From Acidobacteriota bacterium (lineage in GTDB: Bacteria; Acidobacteriota; UBA6911; JACQSX01), in the NCBI GenBank assembly GCA_036507075.1, contig DASXQR010000145.1, positions 1-27,029 of the forward strand: a DNA stretch of 27,029 nt, in the 5' to 3' direction. Both the position numbers and the translations under genes were made by a program. This document shows positions 10,153-23,406 of this stretch, piece by piece. The notes beneath the pieces were generated by a model, which saw nothing but the letters and a program-made list of their open reading frames with translations, was not told where the DNA came from and ran no database searches. Positions within the stretch are counted from its first letter, which is position 1. Every line of letters begins with the position of its first letter.

Positions 10153-10525
10153 GAGTTACGAGGTTCTCGGGTTCCGGGTTTCGAGTTTCGGGTTAATTTG
10201 GCTTTCAGTTTGTTTTTAACAGTGAGACTGGGTCGGGTTCGGCCTGTGCGACTTCAATCGCATTCACCGCAGAGCCGCAAAGTGCGCCGAGGTTTCGCCG
10301 AGCTTCGTTTCTCTGCGCAAACTTTGCGTTTTCTGCGGCTCCGCGGTGAAATAGTTGAACGTCTGGCAGACACTTTCGAAAATCGCCATCAGGCGATGCG
10401 AATTTTTCAATTTTTGAATTCGTCAAGTGAACCCTTAACCCGCAACCCTCAACCCGCAAACCCGAAACCCGCAAACCCGCAAACTCGTAACCCGTAAACC
10501 CGGAACCCGTCAACCCGCAAACCGC
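10153..10525. repeat. Heptamer-armed palindromic element (CGGGTTN / AACCCGN) with nested nonamer element
   Basis: Left arm 10153-10194, right arm 10430-10525, with TTCACCGCAGAG...CGCGGTGAA at 10263-10350 inside. Confidence 0.85.
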
Positions 10526-12211
10526 TTACAGTCTTCCCCGCTTGTATTCTTCTACCAGATAATCGCAGGCGCGCGATGCCAGGGCCATAATGGTGATGGT
10601 TGGATTCTGGCAGGCGGATGCCGGATACACCGCGCCGTCCATAACAAACAGATTGCTCACATCATGTGCCTGCTGCCACTTGTTCAGCACAGACGTTTTC
10701 GGATCGTTGCCCATGCGAGCCGTTCCTACTTCGTGAATTGCCAGGCCGGGAGGAGAAATTTCCGCATGGGATCGGACGTATTCAGCGCCCGCGGCTTGCA
10801 GCATCTCTGCCGCGGTGGCGGCCATGTCGTCGACCATCTTCTTTTCGTTATCTCCAAAGGCCGCCGAGATGTGAAGCACCGGAATTCCCCACGCGTCGAC
10901 TTTCTCTTTGTCCAACTCACAATAGTTTTCGAAGCGCGGCAGACACTCGCCGAATCCACCCAGGTTGATATACCAGGGGTGATTCTCGCGCACGGCCTTC
11001 TTGAATGAAGCGCCGAATCCGGGCATGCCGAACGCGTGCCCCCAGGTGCTTTCATCGGCAGAGCCCTGGAAGCCGTAACCGCGCAGGAAATCCGGGTGTC
11101 TGGTCTCGATATTCCGAAAACGCGCGACGTACACGCCGTTGGGCCGGTTGCCCCGGCTGTCCCGGACGTTCTTCAACATCGGCAAAACTCCCGAAGCACC
11201 GCCGCCCATCACGTGATCCATCAGGTAATGACCGAGCATGCCGCTCGAGTTTGCAATTCCCCCCGGATGCCGGTCTGACCTGGAATTAAGCATGATGCGG
11301 GTTGATTCCAGGCAGGAGGCGCACAGTACCACCACTTTGCCGAAAACCTCGCGGTGATTGCGCGTCAGCCTGTCGACGTAATGAATGCCCTTGGCCCTTC
11401 CCTTGTCGTCAACCACAACATGGCTTACCACGGCGTTGGGAATTACGGTCAGTTTTCCTGTGGCCTCGGCGGCAGGCAGAGTGCTGGCGGGGCTGCTGTA
11501 ATAAGATCCCGTGGTGCATCCGCGAGAACAAGGTCCGCAGTAATGGCATTTGGGCCGTCCATTCAGGTCCTGCGTGAGGATGGCAACCCTTCCGATTGTC
11601 ACGGTGCGGCCGAACTTGGCCTTCACTTTGTCACGCAGCAAAACCTCACCACAGGACAGGTGCATCGGCGGCAGGAACTGTCCGTCGGGCAACTGCGGCA
11701 GGTTCTCGTTTTGACCGCTGACGCCGACAAACTTTTCCACGCGGTCGTAGTAAGGCGCGAGCTCGGCGTAACTGATCGGCCAATCCACCCCAAATCCATC
11801 CCGCGAGGCCGCCTTCAAATCGTAATCGCTCAACCGATAAGTCTGGCGCGCCCACATGATGGACTTTCCGCCAACGTGACGGCCGCGAATCCAGAGAAAG
11901 GGGCGATCCCTGGGAGTAGTGTAGGGATGTTCCAGATCGTTAATGAAAAGATGATTGGTGTATTCGTCGCACTGGTAACACTCTTTCTGGATGGGCTGCT
12001 GCTCTTGGGAGGCGTGGGTGCCAAAGCGACGCCCGCGCAGCGGCATATCGTAGGGAAGCTTATGCTCGGTGTAGTCCACATCCGGATCCAGCTTGCGCCC
12101 CGCCTCCAGGACAGCGACGCGCAGCCCGGATTCGGTCAGTTGTTTTGCGACCCACCCGCCGGATGCGCCCGAGCCGACAATGATTGCGTCATAAACCTGG
12201 TTCTGTGCCAT
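10526..12211 (-). CDS. GMC family FAD oxidoreductase, large subunit (glycoside 3-dehydrogenase-like)
   Basis: DAIIVGSGASGG FAD motif, CHYCGPCSRGC Fe-S cysteine cluster, HEVGTARMG and QNPT active-site motifs. Start at MAQNQ. Confidence 0.93.
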   Translation of the reverse strand: MAQNQVYDAIIVGSGASGGWVAKQLTESGLRVAVLEAGRKLDPDVDYTEHKLPYDMPLRGRRFGTHASQEQQPIQKECYQCDEYTNHLFINDLEHPYTTPRDRPFLWIRGRHVGGKSIMWARQTYRLSDYDLKAASRDGFGVDWPISYAELAPYYDRVEKFVGVSGQNENLPQLPDGQFLPPMHLSCGEVLLRDKVKAKFGRTVTIGRVAILTQDLNGRPKCHYCGPCSRGCTTGSYYSSPASTLPAAEATGKLTVIPNAVVSHVVVDDKGRAKGIHYVDRLTRNHREVFGKVVVLCASCLESTRIMLNSRSDRHPGGIANSSGMLGHYLMDHVMGGGASGVLPMLKNVRDSRGNRPNGVYVARFRNIETRHPDFLRGYGFQGSADESTWGHAFGMPGFGASFKKAVRENHPWYINLGGFGECLPRFENYCELDKEKVDAWGIPVLHISAAFGDNEKKMVDDMAATAAEMLQAAGAEYVRSHAEISPPGLAIHEVGTARMGNDPKTSVLNKWQQAHDVSNLFVMDGAVYPASACQNPTITIMALASRACDYLVEEYKRGRL

Positions 12212-12257
12212 TGTGCCTTTGTGGTGAAAATCCGTAAATCTGCGGCTGGTTCTCCAA

Positions 12258-12860: not shown

Positions 12861-12945
12861 TTTCCTTTCTCTTCCAGTCGTTACAGACCAACCACAATTT
12901 TAGCGTGTAGGCGGGCTGAGCTGGAAATTAATTCGGCGCTAGATG

Positions 12946-13270
12946 CGGGTTCCCGGGTTTCGGGTTGACGAGTTACGGGTTGACGAGTTACGGGTTCTCG
13001 GGTTCCGGGTGACGAGGTGTCGAGTTGGCGAATTGTAAAACTCAAAATTGCGCCATCGGCAACTCAATGCAGCCATTTGGAAATACCAATACGAGGTCTC
13101 ACTTAAAAATTTCACTCAAATTACTCAAACTCGCAACTTGTCAACCCGTAACCTGGAACCCGGAACCCGGAACCCGGAACTCGTCAACCCGAAACCCGAG
13201 AACCCGAAACCCGAGAACCCGAAACCCGGAACTCGTCAACCCGGAACTCGTCAACCCGGAACCCGAGAAC
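12946..13270. repeat. Heptamer-armed palindromic element
   Basis: Left CGGGTT/CGAGTT units at 12946-13026, AT-rich core, right AACCCG(G/A)/AACTCGTC units at 13128-13270. Confidence 0.88.
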
Positions 13271-14232
13271 TATGCCCAGTACGCCACGCCTGCGGGTTCG
13301 GCGATTACGACGCTTTTCAGAAAGGCGATCGCCTTTTTCAATCCTTCCGTGCCCGACATGAGGCTGTCTTCATGTTCGATACTGATGACATGGTCATAGC
13401 CGATCAGTCTCAAGTTGCTGATGATCTCCTTCCAGACCTTGTCGTCGTGACCGTAGCCGACCGTCCTGAAAATCCACGACCGCTCGATTTCCCGGGTGTA
13501 CTTTTTGGCGTCCAGCACGCCGTTGACGGATTTGTTGTGCGCATCAATGCCGCAGTCCTTGGCGTGGAAATGATAGACGCAGTCTCCCAGAGACCGGAGC
13601 GCGGGACCGATCTCTACGCCCTGCCAGAACATATGGCTCGGATCGAAATTGCAACCGATTACTCCCGGCGCAATGTCGCGCAGTCTCAGCATCGTTTCCG
13701 GGTTGTAAACGACAAAATTAGGATGCATTTCTATGGCGACTTTCATTCCGTTCGACTTGCAGAACTTTGCCGTCTCCTTCCAGTAGGGAATCACGCGTTC
13801 TTCCCACTGCCACTCCAGCATTTCCATGAATTCAGGAGGCCAGGGCGCGATGATCCAATTGGGCTGTGTCGCCTTGGGATCGCCGCCCGGGCAGCCGCTG
13901 AACGTGATGACGCGATCGACGTCGAGTTTCCGCGCCAGTTTGACCGTCTGCTCGAAAACGCTGTGATGGTCCCTGGCGATCTTCTTCTGGGGGTGAAGAG
14001 GGTTGCCGTGACAGCTCAAGGCGCTGATGGTGAGATGGCGGCTTTCAATAGCTTTTTTGAAGCGTTTCAGCCGCGATTCGTTACTGAGCAGGGCGGCCGG
14101 ATCGCAGTGAGCATTGCCCGGGTAAGCGCCGGTTCCGATTTCAACCGCCTGCAGGCCCAGCTCCAGCAGGTAGTCGAGCGTTTCTTCGAACGGCTTGTCT
14201 CCAAAGAGAACTGAAAATACTCCGATCTTCAT
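13270..14232 (-). CDS. Sugar phosphate isomerase/epimerase family TIM-barrel protein
   Basis: LSCHGNPLHP, IEMHP, NFDPSH, HFHAKD, SIEHED metal-binding motifs. RBS AAAGGAGG. Confidence 0.92.
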   Translation of the reverse strand: MKIGVFSVLFGDKPFEETLDYLLELGLQAVEIGTGAYPGNAHCDPAALLSNESRLKRFKKAIESRHLTISALSCHGNPLHPQKKIARDHHSVFEQTVKLARKLDVDRVITFSGCPGGDPKATQPNWIIAPWPPEFMEMLEWQWEERVIPYWKETAKFCKSNGMKVAIEMHPNFVVYNPETMLRLRDIAPGVIGCNFDPSHMFWQGVEIGPALRSLGDCVYHFHAKDCGIDAHNKSVNGVLDAKKYTREIERSWIFRTVGYGHDDKVWKEIISNLRLIGYDHVISIEHEDSLMSGTEGLKKAIAFLKSVVIAEPAGVAYWA

Positions 14233-14267
14233 GGGATGCCGCCTCCTTTAAGTATGAGCGTCCTTTT

Positions 14268-14500
14268 GTTTCGGGTTGACTGGTTCCGGGTTAACCGGGT
14301 TCCGGGTTCCGGGTTGACTAGTTGCGAGTTGACGAATTAAAAAATTCAAAAATATCAAGGCAATCTTTTGCTCCTTCAAATTTTCAATCTTCAATTCTCT
14401 CATTCGTTAACCCGCAACCAGTCAACCGTAACCTTCAACCCGTAACCCGCCAACCCGGAACCCGTCAACCCGGAACCCGTCAACCCGCCACTCGTCAACC
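14268..14500. repeat. Heptamer-armed palindromic element
   Basis: Left CCGGGTT units at 14268-14335, AT-rich core, right AACCCG units at 14403-14500. Confidence 0.85.
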
Positions 14501-15622
14501 GCCGACTTTGATCCACTTTCTGTCATGCGCCGACCTTTCCATGGCGTCGAGAACACGCTGGTTGATCACGCCGTCTTCAAAATTCGGCGCCGGCACGCGT
14601 TCGTCTGCAATTCCCTCGAGTAAGTCGTATACGGTATGCGTGAAAGTGTGCTCGTATCCGATGATATGGCCGGGGGGCCACCATGCCTTCATGTATGGAT
14701 GGCTGCTTTCCGTGACCATCACATTGCGAAAACCCTGAACCGCAGGCGCGTCGGAAGTCAAAAACACCTCCAGCTCATTCAATCGTTCAAGATTGAACGC
14801 GACGCTTCCCTTGCTGCCGTTGATTTCAAATCTGTTGTAGTTTTTCCGGCCCGTGGCAAAGCGGGACGCTTCAATGGTGCCGAGCGCGCCGTTGTTGAAA
14901 CGCACCACGGCCGCCGACGCGTCGTCGACTGTCACTTTTCCCTTCTTGCGCGGGTTATCGGGAAGGGGTCTCTCCTTGATGAACGTCTCCAGCGCGCAGC
15001 TGACTTCTTCGATCTCACCCACAAGAAAGCGGGCCAGGTCGATGGAATGCGAAGCAATGTCTCCCAGCGCTCCTGATCCCGCCTTGTCTTTCTGCAGTCG
15101 CCACACCAGTGGAAAGCTCGGATCCACAATCCAATCCTGAAGGTAGGTTCCGCGGTAATGATAAATGTCGCCCAGCTTTCCCTGTTCGACCAACTGTCGC
15201 GCCAGCATCACGGCCGGGGCGCGGCGGTAGTTGTGGCATACCATGTGGATAACGCCCGCCTTTTTGACGGCGGCCAGCATCTTTTCCGCCTCTTTCACCG
15301 TATTGGCCAGCGGCTTTTCGCAGAAGACGACTTTACCGGCCTGGGCCGCTGCGATTGCAATTTCAGCGTGGCTGTCTCCGGGAGTACTAACGTCAACGAC
15401 GTGAATGTCTTTACGGCGCACGACCTTGCGCCAGTCCGTTTCGGCTTCTTCCCAGCCGTATTTTTCCGCGGCAGCTTGAACATTTTTTACGTTGCGGCCG
15501 CACAGCACTTTCATCCGAGGCTGCAACCGCGGATTGAAGAAAGCTGAAACCTGACGATAGGCATTGCTGTGCGCCTTGCCCATGAAGGCATATCCGATTA
15601 ATGCGACATTTACCTGCGGCAT
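14495..15622 (-). CDS. Gfo/Idh/MocA family NAD(P)-dependent oxidoreductase
   Basis: [45 protein letters not shown]. Start at MPQVN. Confidence 0.93.
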
Positions 15623-15703
15623 GAGGCCCCCGGAAGCTGAAGAGAAAGGGAAATCTACAACAGACCGCCACAGGACACAAGGGCCTCGGGAAGCGCGGAA
15701 CGA

Positions 15704-15788
15704 GGGAGTGGGGGAGTGGGGGACTGGGAGAGTGGGAGAGTGGGAGAGTGGGAGAGTGGGAGAGTGGGAGAGTGGGGGAGTGGGAGAG
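15704..15788 (+). repeat. G-rich octamer tandem repeat (GGGAGAGT)n
   Basis: Six perfect units at 15726-15773 plus about five variant units. Confidence 0.95.
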
Positions 15789-15839
15789 CTGCGCACCAGC
15801 AGAGCCGCAACTGGAAAGGGAGCGGCGCACCGATGTGAG

Positions 15840-16022
15840 TTGATCCGCGCTTTCAGCGCAGATCGGCGGCCGAAAATCTTGATCCGCGCTTTCAGCACGA
15901 TCAGCGGCCAAAAGTCTTGATCCGCGCTTTCAGCACGATCAGCGGCCAAAAATCTTGATCCGCGCTTTCAGCGCAGATCAGCGGCCAAAAATCCGTTCTG
16001 GTCAGCGTTCACCCGCGGCAGA
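15840..16022 (+). repeat. Tandem array of four 38-39-bp units plus terminal variant, related to the GxxExxY flank
   Basis: TTGATCCGCGCTTTCAGC(GCA/AC)GATC(A/G)GCGGCC(A/G)AAA(A/G)TC starting at 15840, 15879, 15917 and 15955. Confidence 0.92.
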
Positions 16023-16563: not shown

Positions 16564-17436
16564 TCACACGTCGCAAATCCGGAATGCCTGAGCCAGAGAA
16601 GTCAGCGGGTCTCTGGTGGGAATGAACTCCTGTCCGATGAACCCGGTATAGCCCGTATCCAGGATCGCCTTGGAGATGGCCGCGTAGTTGAGTTCCTGAG
16701 TCTCGTCAATTTCATTTCGACCCGGATTTCCGCCGGTGTGGTAATGGACAAAGTAGTCCTTGTTTTCCCGAATGGTGCGGATCACATCGCCTTCCATGAT
16801 CTGCATATGGTAAATGTCGTAAAGCAGCTTGAACCGCGGCGATCCCACTTTCTTCACCAGCCTGACACCCCAATCGGTCTTGTCGCACATGTAGTCCTTG
16901 TGGTTCACCTTGCTGTTGAGGAGCTCAATGGCGACATTGATGTTTTTCTGTTCCGCATGGCCGATGAAGCGCTTTACACCGACGGCGCAGTTCTCCAGTC
17001 CTTCCTCATCGGACATTCCTTTGCGGTTGCCCGAAAAAACAATCACGCTGGGAATTCCCGCTTCAGCGGCGAAATCGATATTCTTTTTGGCGGTGGCTTC
17101 ACAGCGATCGTGATTCTCGAGGCGGTTGAGATTGTCCGGGATTCCGGGAATGCCCCAGGTCATGGCGCAGGTAAGTCCGTACTTTCGCACCACGGCGAAT
17201 TCCTCGGGCCCGATCAGCTCCACCGATTTCAGTCCGATTTTGGCCGCCCCGGCTGCCAGCTCATCAAGGCTCAGCTTCCTGTCATAACACCACTTGCAGA
17301 CGGAATGATTGATATTGCCGCGGCCTTTTGCTGTTTGAACTTCAGCCGCGGAAAGATAGGGCAAGGCCATCGAAGCCGCAGCACCTCCGGCCACAGTTTT
17401 CAAAACCGACCGCCGATCCCAGTCCTGTTCCTTCAT
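16564..17436 (-). CDS. Tat-exported hydroxypyruvate isomerase-like TIM-barrel protein
   Basis: DRRSVL twin-arginine motif, HSVCKWC, ELLNSKVNHKDY, LLYDIYHMQIMEGD, HTGGNPGRNE. Confidence 0.9.
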   Translation of the reverse strand: MKEQDWDRRSVLKTVAGGAAASMALPYLSAAEVQTAKGRGNINHSVCKWCYDRKLSLDELAAGAAKIGLKSVELIGPEEFAVVRKYGLTCAMTWGIPGIPDNLNRLENHDRCEATAKKNIDFAAEAGIPSVIVFSGNRKGMSDEEGLENCAVGVKRFIGHAEQKNINVAIELLNSKVNHKDYMCDKTDWGVRLVKKVGSPRFKLLYDIYHMQIMEGDVIRTIRENKDYFVHYHTGGNPGRNEIDETQELNYAAISKAILDTGYTGFIGQEFIPTRDPLTSLAQAFRICDV

Positions 17437-17526
17437 AACTCCCCCCCTTTGGCATAAAAGGCGATTCTCTAGCTTACAAAATTTATGAAAAAGTTTCGTA
17501 AAAATTTAAGGGAGGGAGTTATGTAA

Positions 17527-17632
17527 TCAGCCGCCGGTTAACGCAGACGGGCACGGATCATAAAAGGCCGCCGGTTTCCGCAAACGGGCACGGATCATAA
17601 AGGGCCGCCAATTAACGCGGAGAACACGGATC
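17527..17632. repeat. Left flank of GxxExxY gene: three 37-bp-period units
   Basis: GCCGCC..TT..CGC..A...(G/A)CACGGATC starting at 17530, 17567 and 17604, ending 4 nt before the ATG. Confidence 0.9.
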
Positions 17633-17636
17633 TGAT

Positions 17637-18044
17637 ATGACTGAAGAATTGAAACATAAGGAACTAACGGGGACGATCATTGGTGCGTTCTTTGATGTTT
17701 ACAACGAGCTCGGTCACGGCTTTCTGGAATCGGTGTACGAAGCGTCCATGGGACTGGTGCTGTCTTCAAAGGGATTGGAGATCATGAGGCAGGCGCCTTT
17801 ACCAGTCTGGTTTCGCGAACAACTGGTGGGTGATTTCCGAGCGGACCTCCTTGTTGAGAGAAAAATAATTGTAGAGATCAAAGCAGCCAGAGCTCTTGAT
17901 CCGGCCAATGAAGCCCAGATTCTAAATTATTTGCGGGCATCTGAGATCGAAATTGGCATGCTGATAAACTTTGGACCCAAGCCCGAGTTCAAGCGTATGA
18001 TTTTCGAAAACAGCAGGAAGAAGATCCGTACTGTTGCGCGTTAA
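17637..18044 (+). CDS. GxxExxY protein (PD-(D/E)XK nuclease superfamily)
   Basis: GFLESVY signature, ADLLVE..IIVEIKA (D...ExK), QILNYL, GMLINFG. Confidence 0.93.
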   Translation: MTEELKHKELTGTIIGAFFDVYNELGHGFLESVYEASMGLVLSSKGLEIMRQAPLPVWFREQLVGDFRADLLVERKIIVEIKAARALDPANEAQILNYLRASEIEIGMLINFGPKPEFKRMIFENSRKKIRTVAR

Positions 18045-18120
18045 CTTACGGGGGAGATTCCCGCCTGACGAAAAAGCCGTGCTTGGTGATTCGAGCTTAA
18101 AAAAAGCTCTGTGAAGAAAA

Positions 18121-18190
18121 ATGATCCGTGCTTTTCAGCGTAAACCGGCGGCTGAAAAATCCGTGCTGGTCGGCGTTCATCAGCGGCAGA
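18121..18190. repeat. Right flank of GxxExxY gene: two units inverted relative to the left flank
   Basis: Reverse complement of 18121-18155 matches 17527-17561 at 30/35 positions. Confidence 0.88.
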
Positions 18191-18227
18191 AATGAGGTAA
18201 GCTATTTTCAAACCCGGGAGTCGAATC

Positions 18228-19034
18228 ATGAAGAGAACGGTCATAATCGTGTACTTCCTTGCATGGGCAGCGCTGTTGGGTTCTCTGCCGAAAGCATCGG
18301 CGGCGATGAAGGCCCCGAAGGGCAAAAAGCATATCCTGTTCATGACCAAGTCGGCGGGATTTACGCATGAAGTAGTGAAATGGCAGACGCCCGGCGGCGA
18401 AAGGAAGATGCCGTTTGCCGGCGAGACCATGCAAAAGCTCGCCGAGCAGGAGAAGGACTTTGAAGTTAATGTCACCGACGACGTCGCACTGCTGAGCGCC
18501 GACGGGTTAAAGAACTACGACGCCGTGGTCTTTTACACTACCGGAGAGCTTCCCATCAGCGACGAACAGAAGACCGCTTTGATGGACTTTGTCAAATCAG
18601 GCAAGGGATTCGCAGGAGTCCACAGCGCAACCGATACTTTCTACAAATGGCCCGACTACGGCGAGATGATCGGCGGTTATTTTGACGGCCATCCGTGGCA
18701 TCAGGAAGTCAATGTCATCGTGGAAGACACCAAGCACCCCGCGACGCGCCACCTGGGGAAATCCTTCCGCATCGCCGACGAGATCTATCAGTACAAAAAC
18801 TTCTCGCGCGACCGCGTTCACGTCCTGATGAAGCTGGACACTTCCTCGGTCGACATGACCAAGCCAAATATCAAGCGCACCGATGGCGATTTCGCTTTAG
18901 CCTGGATTCGCGACTGGGGCAAGGGCCGCGTGTTTTACACAGCACTCGGGCACAAGCCGGAAGTCTGGTCGGATCCGCGGTTTCAAACACATCTTCTCAA
19001 CGGCATTCGCTGGACAATGAGAACAATAAAATAG
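18228..19034 (+). CDS. ThuA-like (trehalose utilisation, GATase-like fold) exported protein
   Basis: Signal peptide, [37 protein letters not shown]. Confidence 0.9.
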
Positions 19035-19157
19035 TCCGTTGTCCGTTGTCCGTGGTCAGTTGTCAAGGTCGATTTCCATGGACCACTGACCACGGAACCG
19101 ACCGACAACGGACAACCAACCACGGACAACGGACAACGGACCACTGACCACCGACAA
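19033..19157. repeat. Second heptamer-armed palindrome (GTCCGTT / GACAACG)
   Basis: GTCCGTTGTCCGTTGTCCGTGGTCAGTTGTC inverted against GACCACTGACCAC..GACAACGGACAACGGAC. Confidence 0.85.
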
Positions 19158-19161
19158 AAAG

Positions 19162-20719: not shown

Positions 20720-20783
20720 CTTTGTGTCCTTTGTGTCTTTGTGGTGAAAGGGGTACGACCACAAAGACACAAAGGACACAAAG
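20720..20783. repeat. Perfect 26-bp inverted repeat of nonamer units
   Basis: CTTTGTGTCCTTTGTGTCTTTGTGGT-12 nt-ACCACAAAGACACAAAGGACACAAAG. Confidence 0.92.
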
Positions 20784-20806
20784 TTAAATTTACACTGGAG
20801 AATCCC

Positions 20807-21973
20807 GTGTCTGACTACAAACCCCGCCCGGAACACAGATTCACATTCGGCCTGTGGACAGTCGGCAATCGCGGTCGCGATCCGTTCGGCGACTCCACTC
20901 GCCAAACCCTCGCGCCTGTGAATATCGTCAAGATGATGTCGGAGATCGGCGCTTACGGCGTCAATCTGCATGACAATGACCTGGTACCCATCGACGCCAC
21001 TCCGGCTCAGCAGAAGAGAATCGTCGCCGACTTCAAGAAGGCGCTGAGCGATTACGACATCAAGGTGCCGATGGCGACCACAAACCTGTTCTTTGATCCG
21101 GTCTTCAAAGACGGAGCTTTCACGTCCAACAGCGCCAAGGTGCGCGCTTACGCGCTGCAAAAGACCATGCGCGCCATCGACCTGGGTGTGGAACTGGGAG
21201 CGGGATTGTACGTTTTCTGGGGCGGCCGCGAGGGCGCCGAAGTAGACGCGTCCAGGAATCCTGCCGAAGCGATCAAGAGAATGCGCGAGTGCATTAATTT
21301 TCTGATCCGCTACGTCAAGGACAACAAGTACAAACTCAAATTTGCGCTGGAACCCAAGCCCAACGAACCGCGCGGTGACTTATACCTGCCCACTGTGGGA
21401 GCGATGCTGGCTTTCATTGAATCGCTGGATGACCCGGATATGGTGGGCGTCAATCCCGAGCTGGCACACGATCATATGTGCGGGCTGAATTTTTATCATT
21501 CCGTCGCGCAGGCATGGGAGGCCGGCAAGTTGTTTCACATTGATCTTAACGACCAGAAGCTCAATCGCTTCGATCAGGATCTTCGCTTCGGCTCTGAAAA
21601 CCTGAAGGCCTGTTTTTTCCTGGTGAAGTTTCTCGAAGATGTCCGCTACCAGGGCTCGCGGCATTTCGACGCGCATTCCTACCGCAGCGAGGATCCGGAG
21701 GGTGTCAGGGAGTTTGCCCGGGGCTGCATGCGAACTTACCTGATCCTGAAGGACAAAGCCGAGCAGTTTAACAAAGATCGAGAGATCCGGGACCTGCTCA
21801 AAGACATCGAAGAACGCGACAAAGAGCTTGAAAAAGCAATGCGAAGCTATTCGGGCAAGAGCGCCCGCAGGATTCTGGACGCCAATCTTGACCGCGTGCA
21901 GCTAGCCGCCCGCCCGCTCCGGTACGAGCGGCTCGATCAGTTGACGATGGAAATTCTGATGGGGGTACGGTGA
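20807..21973 (+). CDS. xylA: Xylose isomerase, class I (short type)
   Basis: GTG start after [47 protein letters not shown]; 388 aa. Confidence 0.95.
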
Positions 21974-21976
21974 CCT

Positions 21977-22092
21977 TGTCCGTTGTCCGTAGTCCGTTGT
22001 CAGTGGTCCATTGTCACTGCCTGATTTTAGTTCGGTACACTCAACAACAAAAGACCACGAACAACTGACAACGGACTACGGACAACGGACTA
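21977..22092. repeat. Second heptamer-armed palindrome between convergent genes
   Basis: TGTCCGTTGTCCGTAGTCCGTTGTCAGT inverted against ACTGACAACGGACTACGGACAACGGAC. Confidence 0.88.
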
Positions 22093-23406
22093 ACTCAGCA
22101 CATGGTGCGTCACGTACGAGATCTCTACCGGCACGCCGCCATTTACCCGGACACGGATGAGCACCTGAAAGTACTTCGGAAGCTGCACCGTATCTTTGGA
22201 AGTTGATGTGTTCAGCCGTTCAATCAGCTCGCGGATGTATTCGGTTTTGCTTACGTACTCGGCGGCCGCCTGGGTTCCGAACGTGCTGATTCCCGCCAGA
22301 ATCAACAGACGGTGCTTATCGTCCAGGCCTCGCAGGAGACTGATAACGGCGTAATCCTCAGTGGTTCGGCTGGTATAGGCGCCCTCGGGTTTGGTGCAGA
22401 ACTGGGACTGCTCTCCTGTCTTCGGGCGCAGATTGAAGATTGTAAATCTGCCACTCCCGTCTCCGGACTTGACCAGCCGGAATACGAAATCCTGATTTTG
22501 AGGCATTTCCCGCAGGATCAGGTTCTCAGCGGTGGAACCGAGCATCACCACGTTCTCAGTCTTGAAGTCGTCCCAGGTCATCAGCAGGCTTCGTTTCACC
22601 CTGAACGACCGCCCGATTGTCGCGAAAAGATTCGACAGTGAAGAAACGCCTGCGACTTCACCCACTCCCGTATAAGAGTCGACGATCTGGGGGTCAAAGC
22701 CAGGGTCAAGTTTGATCTTCGGAGCAGTCACGGCATCGAGCGTTCCGGGCGAGTCGAGCGGCTTCAGGAGTTTCATGCCGCCTTCCGGCGTGCCTTGATA
22801 CAGGGTATTGCTGTAGGCCAGCAAAATCGGTTCCGGCGAATGAAGAAAGGAATCCCAGAACGGCGAGAACACCTTCAGAGCAGAAGGCGCCAACGCCTGG
22901 GCATTTCGCAGACTTTGGGCCTCCGATCGATAATGCCAGGCAGCGCCTGCCAGCAGGAGCGATAATGCCAGGGTGCAAATAATGACGCCGTAAAACCAGT
23001 TGTGACGGCATCCGGGAACGGCTTTCGTTTTCGCGGAAGCCACGCCGCGCGCAGCATCGGCCTCGATTCCATTATGCTGATATGAGAATACGGGCACATA
23101 GTGACCTTTCGGCAGTTCGATCAAAAGCCTGTCATTGCTGCCTTCATCGGCATAGAATTCCTTCAGCTTGGAGCGCAGCCTGCCCGCCTGCACGCGAACG
23201 ACCGATTCTATGCGCGGATCGTAGTCATCGCCGCGGCTGAAGACCTGTGTGGCGATGGTGTATTCCTTGAGCTGGATGTTGGGGTTCTCGAGCGTCTCTG
23301 TTACGACGAAACGCAGGAATGCTCTCAGGCTCTCAGCTCCCTGAAGGGTGCGGCTGTGGAGAATTCGATCCAGTTGAGCCAGCTTTTCTTCCCGACTGGG
23401 ATCCAT
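22090..23406 (-). CDS. Putative membrane-anchored regulator: N-terminal wHTH-like domain, TM helix, periplasmic domain
   Basis: LKEYTIATQVF..DYDP..ESVVRVQAGRLRSKL..LPKGHYVP N-domain, a single hydrophobic segment, start at MDPSR. Function is inferred. Confidence 0.7.
   Translation of the reverse strand: MDPSREEKLAQLDRILHSRTLQGAESLRAFLRFVVTETLENPNIQLKEYTIATQVFSRGDDYDPRIESVVRVQAGRLRSKLKEFYADEGSNDRLLIELPKGHYVPVFSYQHNGIEADAARGVASAKTKAVPGCRHNWFYGVIICTLALSLLLAGAAWHYRSEAQSLRNAQALAPSALKVFSPFWDSFLHSPEPILLAYSNTLYQGTPEGGMKLLKPLDSPGTLDAVTAPKIKLDPGFDPQIVDSYTGVGEVAGVSSLSNLFATIGRSFRVKRSLLMTWDDFKTENVVMLGSTAENLILREMPQNQDFVFRLVKSGDGSGRFTIFNLRPKTGEQSQFCTKPEGAYTSRTTEDYAVISLLRGLDDKHRLLILAGISTFGTQAAAEYVSKTEYIRELIERLNTSTSKDTVQLPKYFQVLIRVRVNGGVPVEISYVTHHVLS

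Follow-up and report, generated by a model that had tools for sequence, protein, structure and literature searches.

The window analysed here, a 27,029-nt stretch that makes up contig C145 (DASXQR010000145.1) of the 6.1-Mb, 233-contig Acidobacteriota bacterium assembly GCA_036507075.1, contains an intact gene for a GxxExxY-family nuclease, set between inverted arrays of a 37-bp repeat. This locus is a copy of a widespread palindromic cassette, the arm of which has been tandemly amplified here. Literature searches by family name and by tandem and inverted intergenic repeats found no report linking GxxExxY genes to repeat arms, and a printed description of the cassette with this gene was likewise not found. 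An earlier reading of the DNA alone (the first-pass annotation) had described a lone GxxExxY gene between two divergent sugar-catabolism genes, with three repeat units upstream and two inverted units downstream. The gene and its setting were borne out by profile matches of the encoded protein and by its TIM-barrel and ThuA neighbours, and the arrangement of the units by a repeat search and a flank alignment, in which the best ungapped inverted match between the two flanks is 35 nt long, with 30 of 35 positions complementary (score 20 at +1/-2).

The encoded protein matches profile hidden Markov models (HMMs) for both PF13366 (PDDEXK_3; E = 1.5e-38, 132.2 bits against a cut-off of 22) and TIGR04256 (GxxExxY; E = 2.1e-37, 128.1 bits, cut-off 35). 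Twenty-one family members of this genome and its relatives were aligned; E31, Y34, E80, K82, Q94 and N111 do not vary among them, and at least 90% have D70. The window protein keeps all of these residues, with the G-x-x-E-x-x-Y motif and the D ... E-x-K nuclease motif both in place. A sequence search of the PDB gave no significant match to any solved structure. An AlphaFold2 model of the protein (pLDDT 93.8, pTM 0.86) resembles most closely the Cas4 nuclease SSO0001, the Hjc Holliday-junction resolvases and the lambda-type exonucleases, the similarity being weak (E 2e-4 to 3e-3, TM-score 0.40-0.54); the top matches are all PD-(D/E)XK nucleases, which gives the model a restriction-endonuclease-like fold. 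Hjc and SSO0001 have the same small PD-(D/E)XK core and a similar size, but differ in sequence (14-18% identity, with the TM-scores just given); neither a Cas4-type iron-sulfur cluster nor a CRISPR context was noticed at the locus, where no search was aimed at either. PADLOC and PHROGs yielded zero families at E<=0.01 for anti-phage defence or phage genes. PF13366 is a large family of bacteria, archaea and viruses, the function of which is listed as 'Unknown' in PMC3424549.

The positions of the cassette and of the features around it are collected in Table 1. Units 1 and 2 of the left arm are 89% identical and, by eye, are closer to each other than either is to any right unit, which indicates tandem duplication rather than nested insertion. 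The outer right-arm unit is 89% identical to the last unit of the gene-less array to the left of the TIM-barrel gene. A degenerate unit overlapping the stop codon, also claimed in the first-pass annotation, is indeed present; it codes for the last eight codons of the gene and the stop codon, and pairs with the third left unit in the predicted RNA fold described below. Of the two gene-less relatives proposed for the window, the five-unit array stands, with all of its units in one orientation, whereas the one near position 12228 is weak and is absent from the unit-profile matches at E<=10. Terminal inverted repeats are present at the cassette, and no terminal direct repeat was seen by eye beyond the outer units. 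A transposase of known class (DDE, HUH, serine or tyrosine) was not found at the cassette, in which the PF13366 gene stands alone.

Table 1. Positions of the cassette, its repeat units and adjoining features in the window
Feature	Position	Strand	Basis or remark
Left arm, three tandem 37-bp units	17527-17562, 17566-17599, 17603-17634	-	Last unit stops 2 nt before the ATG
GxxExxY / PDDEXK_3 gene, 135 aa, intact	17637-18044	+	PF13366 and TIGR04256 HMM matches
Degenerate innermost right-arm unit	18020-18055	+	67% identity to reference unit
Possible extra decayed unit in the spacer	18071-18095	+	By eye alone; no tool call
Right arm, two inverted units	18120-18156, 18156-18191	+	Repeat search, profile, flank alignment
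Promoter-like motif, outside the first unit	17484-17529	+	A-tract, TTTCGT box 17494-17499, GTTATGT box 17518-17524
Gene-less array, five units, single orientation	15840-16022	+	Between the GFO/IDH/MocA dehydrogenase gene and the cytochrome c gene
Weak partial unit adjoining an arm of another repeat family	12228-12247	+	By eye
Xylose-isomerase-like TIM-barrel gene, left neighbour	16564-17436	-	
ThuA gene, right neighbour	18228-19034	+	Divergent from the TIM-barrel gene

Inspection by eye distinguishes three sub-sites about 10 bp apart in each left-arm unit: an outer one rich in G+C, a middle one and, closest to the gene, an inner one (offsets of approximately 4, 14 and 24). The arms of the nearest homologues, L073 (66% protein identity) and L072 (62%), likewise consist of three short sites about 10 bp apart. 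From this likeness in layout, one 37-bp unit is read as one complete three-site arm of the relatives' cassettes, here tandemly multiplied, which would make three copies on the left and, on the right, two good copies and one or two decayed ones. Single units are not predicted to form hairpins: four of them, folded as DNA, gave z-scores of +0.64 to -0.77 against shuffles. The right arm also encodes the C-terminal tail of the protein in L072 and L073. Because the arms overlap the ends of the open reading frame (ORF), in the last eight codons here and at the C-terminus in L072, gene and arms look like a single unit. The arms had been expected to accompany the gene outside conserved synteny, and the nearest homologues, which lie in other gene contexts, do carry them; the genes flanking L072 are, from their translations, presumably ispD and ispF. 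L073 occurs in a tandem series of cassettes, in which the neighbouring units appear by eye to retain the arms and both ends of the gene but not its middle, and would be internally deleted, gene-poor derivatives beside the full copy.

The association of gene and arms is general. There are six PF13366 loci in this genome (four intact, one with two stops and one truncated), and inverted short-repeat arms occur at all six, each of a different family. An ungapped flank complementarity score of at least 16 is reached at four of the six, as against 75 of 3442 (2.2%) crudely called genes of up to 1400 nt, so that the expectation of repeats being more frequent beside GxxExxY genes than elsewhere holds. 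When the window protein was used as a query, 80 loci from many bacterial phyla and some archaea were collected, all of the window's own clade, of which 78 had enough flank. A score of at least 12 was found at 42 of these 78, compared with 8 of 234 controls in which flanks were paired across loci, and a score of at least 16 at 19 of 78, compared with 0 of 234; both counts are lower bounds, since the ungapped score misses arms that bear indels, such as those of L072. Of 41 related genomes, 17 have PF13366; the number of matches per genome ranges from 0 to 17, and many of the matches are fragments or bear stops. Ten of 18 intact loci from the relatives score at least 12, and several of the rest have, by eye, a complete hairpin on one side.

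A further expectation, that protein clade and repeat sequence co-vary, was confirmed on a tree of 100 family proteins, in which 49 loci could be labelled by the ending of the arm unit as A-G (12 loci) or A-T/A-A (37 loci). The labels change twice on the tree, compared with a shuffled mean of 10.9 (0/500 shuffles as low), and a single well-supported clade takes in 11 of the 12 A-G loci. When the test is confined to the window's own class, in which the same genomes harbour both clades, there is one change against 2.87 expected from shuffling (5/500 as low). Close protein pairs have arm variants in common; the spacing of the sites does not divide in the same way, the periods of the two clades overlapping (9-11 against 8-9). 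Co-inheritance of gene and arms would be enough to explain the match between arm and clade, which is no proof that the protein recognises the arm.

The 37-bp unit is not confined to the window. A profile built from ten window units gave 125 matches at E<=1, which group into 65 loci of this genome; the E-values of the window's own units are circular, as the profile was made from them. The units run minus then plus, the polarity seen around the gene, at 29 loci and plus then minus at none, with a single '+-+' arrangement and 35 loci in a single orientation. Only at the window locus is there a gene between the arms, the other 64 being gene-less. Sixteen of the doublets belong to a gene-less composite of about 210 bp that has an outer palindrome, one arm of the 37-bp type per side and, at the centre, a 22-bp stem enclosing a 38-nt loop, as at C156:15000-15420 (L152) and in 15 other copies. 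Most core columns are conserved in at least 80% of the 16 copies, and the composite would therefore have been copied recently. Several copies are centred, by eye, in yet another palindrome, two lie at contig ends, and the flanks of several are inverted rather than direct repeats. A search of the composite against Rfam gave sub-threshold microRNA-like matches alone. A similarly built composite element was seen by eye in the sister genome G001, at locus L059.

Inverted arrays of other families are far more numerous. A census (seed 10, score of at least 16 at +1/-2, arms within 1700 nt) detected 1837 inverted-repeat clusters, of which 1598 have loops shorter than 250 nt; under the settings used for the relatives, the density is 26 arrays per 100 kb. 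Most arms consist of tandem 7- to 9-mers, which fall into many motif families. Arrays are present in 37% of convergent, 29% of tandem and 27% of divergent intergenic regions, as defined by crude gene calls; a role as simple terminators was rejected on this distribution, which shows no preference for the 3' ends of genes. The recurrent small genes that fill loops of 250-1700 nt are Y1-transposase (RAYT-like) genes, GxxExxY genes and genes for PF05635 four-helix-bundle proteins. Five Y1-transposase genes occur in such loops with their own G+C-rich palindromes and serve as a positive control. PF05635, the ORF family of 23S rRNA intervening sequences, is represented by seven loci with short-repeat arrays beside each, of motif families that differ from those of the GxxExxY genes; three of the seven have clearly inverted arms on either side of the gene, and others have direct repeats or a complete hairpin on one side. 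Gene-less hairpins matching the arms of PF05635 loci number 55, 23, 18, 16, 6 and 4. For the GxxExxY copies, a match was scored where a gene-less hairpin shares at least six of the copy's 7-mers, and the counts are 90 for C83, 8 for C140 and none for C37 (all intact), 100 for the truncated copy on C152, 31 for the two-stop copy on C59 and none for the window copy.

The abundance of arrays suggests a reading in which they are architectural or regulatory repeats of the host, either binding sites for host proteins or structures at transcript ends, with the GxxExxY gene merely situated among them. Such a reading is in keeping with the approximately 1,600 arrays and their spread over convergent, tandem and divergent intergenic regions, and with a high density that is a trait of the lineage comprising this genome (G000), G001 and G003. 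There is also a published precedent in Geobacter metallireducens, for which Aklujkar 2009 (PMC2700814) describes gene-less tandem hepta- and octanucleotide pairs on opposite strands, in sets of 24, 21 and 8 pairs, that were proposed to bind global regulators of the IHF/HU type. Like the gene-less arrays here, these pairs consist of 3-5 tandem repeats at variable distance in intergenic regions, for example between proB and proA; the main-text passages name no link to GxxExxY or four-helix-bundle genes, and the supplementary tables of neighbouring genes may bear on this. However, an ordinary bracketed gene such as that for EF-P (one case, by eye) has a complete hairpin on each side, whereas a GxxExxY gene splits a single hairpin. 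The excess of bracketed GxxExxY genes over ordinary ones, the recurrence of the association in many phyla, the agreement of arm type with protein clade, the overlap of arms with ORF ends and the conserved composite copies, which point to recent copying, all argue against a host function, and this reading is considered quite improbable.

A second rival holds that the gene encodes a free-standing homing-type endonuclease, which would cut the empty allele or another chromosomal site so that repair copies the cassette in, the arms either being passive or folding the insert back, whereby its two flanks would be brought together in recombination. PD-(D/E)XK homing endonucleases do exist, I-Ssp6803I being an example. 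The nearest homologues are found where unrelated housekeeping genes adjoin, the occurrence of the family is patchy with many decayed copies, and the promoter-like motif is one that recombination genes have as well, all of which would suit homing. It does not predict that arm type should follow protein clade beyond co-inheritance, or that gene-less doublets with matching arms should exist, and each copy in this genome represents a different lineage, with no sign of recent homing between sites. Homing is therefore also regarded as improbable, if slightly less so than a host function.

In its general form, the promoter-like motif combines an A-tract with two boxes 18 nt apart, the first TTTCGC-like and the second GTTATGT-like. 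A second weight matrix was made from ten host genes alone (ssb, recA, comEA-like, pseudopilin, comM, dprA, comF-like, recQ, recG and ERCC4), and with it the window site scores 18.2, a value reached by 63 of 12.2 million genome positions. Pfam matches confirm the genes behind the motif as encoding SSB, RecA, DprA, a ComM-type Mg-chelatase-like ATPase and a ComEA-like helix-hairpin-helix protein, together with a pseudopilin, a ComF-like phosphoribosyltransferase-domain protein, RecQ, RecG and an ERCC4 nuclease. The host sites, 46 nt long, lie on contigs C208, C111, C45, C23, C110, C187, C124, C17 and C28 of this genome (L197-L205 and L208). With the host-only matrix, the motif was found upstream at five of six GxxExxY, six of seven PF05635 and six of six RAYT-like loci tested, and each of these sites is among the 71 best of the 12.2 million positions. 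All four GxxExxY loci of the sister genomes G001 and G003 score 25-32; of the other 14 loci from relatives, 13 score 7.1 or less and one 17.5, and the genomes concerned may use another motif. The motif set looks like a DNA-uptake and recombination regulon under some sigma factor or regulator, and its gene content suggests that the motif may be a promoter and the set a competence regulon. As the motif ends at 17529, before the first unit, a transcript starting from it in the window would carry all of the arms. In the copies on C83, C37 and C152, the motif follows the left arm and precedes the gene.

A third rival concerns the transcript. When positions 17520-18200 are folded as RNA, the left units are predicted to pair with the right ones around the ORF, with a minimum free energy of -243.9 kcal/mol (z -5.7; 0/20 shuffles as low). 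The insert could be insulated in the manner of an intervening sequence, with the arms pairing in the transcript, RNase III cutting the stem and the insert doing little harm, while the nuclease targets something else. This predicted fold, the position of the window motif outside the left arm, which would place both arms in the transcript, and the presence of PF05635 as a second cargo family all favour such an insulator. PMC4990558 describes rRNA intervening sequences, including those of 23S rRNA with an S23p ORF, as bordered by complementary stretches and excised by RNase III. Those of Coxiella and Leptospira that bear an ORF resemble the cassette as selfish inserts of about 0.4-0.5 kb with complementary borders and one small ORF of unassigned function, often decaying and horizontally acquired, and their ORF family occurs beside or between short-repeat arrays in this genome. 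They differ in lying within rRNA, whereas the window cassette lies between protein genes and has an ORF of nuclease fold and tandem phased arms; Rfam detected no family, rRNA included, at its gathering score in the window.

The sequences of the arms carry no sign of selection for RNA pairing. Among the mismatches in 58 arm pairs, read on the sense strand, there are 46 G-U against 40 A-C (p 0.59) and 86 of the transversion type, whereas G-U is what selection for an RNA stem should favour; a 2:1 bias towards G-U would be unlikely to yield such figures (by a rough normal approximation). In the copies on C83, C37 and C152, the left arm would lie outside the gene's own transcript. Phased tandem sites are not needed for an RNA stem, and an insulator leaves the hundreds of gene-less copies and the fixed polarity of the doublets unexplained. 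The arms are taken to matter mainly as DNA, given the lack of a G-U excess and the three copies in which the motif is on the gene side of the left arm. Insulation at the RNA level is accordingly judged unlikely, though somewhat less so than either homing or a host function.

The reading preferred here is that the nuclease of the cassette recognises and cuts fold-back or junction DNA formed by its own arms during single-stranded DNA recombination, and that it thereby aids the persistence or spread of the cassette and its gene-less arm pairs; it is held tentatively, as falling a little short of an even chance. In the sequence of events envisaged, the intact gene between inverted 37-bp arrays is part of the one gene-bearing member of the cassette family in the genome, and the motif would drive its co-expression with the DNA-uptake and recombination regulon. 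The arms would act as DNA rather than as RNA, forming fold-back or junction structures while single-stranded DNA recombines, and the nuclease would bind or cut them. The outcome could be that the cassette is gained, or that it is retained where incoming cassette-free DNA would delete it; alternatively, gene-less pairs might be copied in trans, a role attributed to RAYTs with respect to REPINs. Any spread would need host recombination and repair, because a hydrolytic nuclease of 135 residues cannot join strands. That the nuclease both acts on the repeats and propagates them is doubtful to possible, at best as probable as the preferred reading itself. The most far-reaching form of the idea is that GxxExxY nucleases drive a new class of selfish palindromic element, in which each lineage would recognise its own phased-repeat arms as fold-back DNA, use the co-regulated transformation and recombination machinery of the host, resist deletion, and copy both itself and hundreds of gene-less arm pairs, with four-helix-bundle genes as a second cargo. 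In this full form, the idea is on the whole unlikely.

Several observations weigh against an action of the nuclease on its arms. Repeats are not special to the window gene, there being about 1,600 arrays of many families, several of them tied to four-helix-bundle genes; since these genes, which do not encode nucleases, occupy similar brackets, a bracket as such can do without a nuclease. For two of the largest matching arm families, the sole gene copy is broken (truncated on C152, stop-bearing on C59), and the window arm has no gene-less hairpin sharing at least six exact 7-mers, its family being old or diverged. The idea that the gene-less hairpins are internally deleted cassettes was rejected, as 836 of their loops gave no GxxExxY coding remnant at E<=0.01, and at E<=10 gave two matches against three in a reversed control. 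As their predicted pairing suggests, the arms may also have a role in RNA. Three of the arm labels on the tree were set by eye. The ten host sites behind the second weight matrix were picked from the matches of a first matrix that included cassette sites. Finally, a ThuA orthologue was recovered in G005 alone (70% identity), and as its upstream neighbour differs there, it carries no information on gain or loss at the window site.

The comparison of hairpin density among 16 relatives, for which samples of 17-100 kb per genome were used (those of G001 and G006 from contigs that hold the gene), is equivocal as well. This genome, G001 and G003, with 4-7 GxxExxY matches, have 26-35 hairpin arrays per 100 kb, and G006, with 17 matches, has 11. 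G011, G013 and G021, with 3-4 matches, have 0-2 arrays per 100 kb in samples of 70-100 kb each. Among genomes with no GxxExxY match, G002, of the same family as this genome, has 2.3 arrays per 100 kb, and G007 and G023 have a few tandem-type arrays. Density tracks lineage more than the presence of GxxExxY genes, and this too counts against the nuclease as the agent that propagates the repeats.

The first-pass annotation had likened the layout to that of RAYTs and repetitive extragenic palindromic (REP) elements, with an enzyme of a different class. The likeness extends to the layout, the co-variation of enzyme and repeat and the shared motif, and fails in the enzyme class, which is not Y1, and in the unit, which forms no hairpin. 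As in REPIN/RAYT systems, each repeat family has a single enzyme gene with inverted copies of the repeat on its two sides, along with many gene-less copies, often as inverted doublets (29 doublets and 35 single-orientation loci here), and the lineage of the enzyme goes with the type of repeat. The true RAYT-like genes of this genome carry the same promoter-like motif as the GxxExxY gene. The REPIN/RAYT enzyme is an HUH Y1 transposase, whereas the enzyme here has a hydrolytic PD-(D/E)XK fold; PF13366 is the sole match at the locus, and the 12 PF01797 (RAYT-like) matches of the genome lie elsewhere, in agreement with the difference in class already proposed. A REP unit is an imperfect palindrome that forms a hairpin, whereas the window unit is a run of phased short sites. 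RAYTs are described as mostly inherited vertically (PMC3116915, PMC3337134), and GxxExxY genes are patchy here, with many decayed copies.

A fixed partnership with repeat arms would give PF13366 a concrete and testable substrate. If the preferred reading is true, the cassette would add a second enzyme class to the few systems that pair a single-copy gene with a population of short palindromic repeats, as a hydrolytic-nuclease counterpart of the RAYT/REPIN partnership. It would also unite rRNA intervening sequences with the intergenic 'regulator sites' of Geobacter as one type of element. The motif in common with DNA-uptake genes suggests that the element may act during natural transformation, and this bears on the current debate over transformation as a cure for genome parasites (PMC4795794, PMC12378983). 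On a practical level, some 1,600 arrays in one genome affect gene calling, breaks in assembly and the prediction of operons.

The wider window comprises a sugar-oxidation cluster, which includes genes for a GMC oxidoreductase, gluconate 2-dehydrogenase subunit 3, further TIM-barrel proteins, a GFO/IDH/MocA dehydrogenase, cytochrome c and XylB. Inverted 7/8-nt tandem arrays fill three junctions of this cluster (10436-10541; 12942-13034 with 13120-13274; 14253-14353 with 14386-14503). Such arrays bracket the TIM-barrel gene at 13270-14232, and the same arm family, which has 55 matching gene-less hairpins, flanks a fragmentary four-helix-bundle gene on C73. Twelve tandem copies of an 8-nt G-rich unit at 15682-15809 adjoin the five-unit 37-bp array; these copies fall where the ORF called for the GFO/IDH/MocA dehydrogenase extends upstream, and the true start of that gene is thus probably further downstream. 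A four-helix-bundle fragment on C231 is flanked by a related arm. Two other short-repeat families form hairpin arrays at 19034-19158 (the ThuA/XylB junction), 21971-22097 (after the gene at 20741-21973), 1455-1505, 12208-12229 and 20728-20783, and the truncated GxxExxY copy on C152 has arms that match one of the two. In G005, the hairpin 5' of the ThuA orthologue (L031:1225-1425) is gene-less, belongs to another arm family, has a loop of 110 nt and is nested in a longer outer palindrome. Near the start of the window, a 40-nt G+C-rich inverted repeat (121-160 with 270-309, 90% complementary, 109-nt spacer) is unlike the tandem-repeat arms and may be REP-like.

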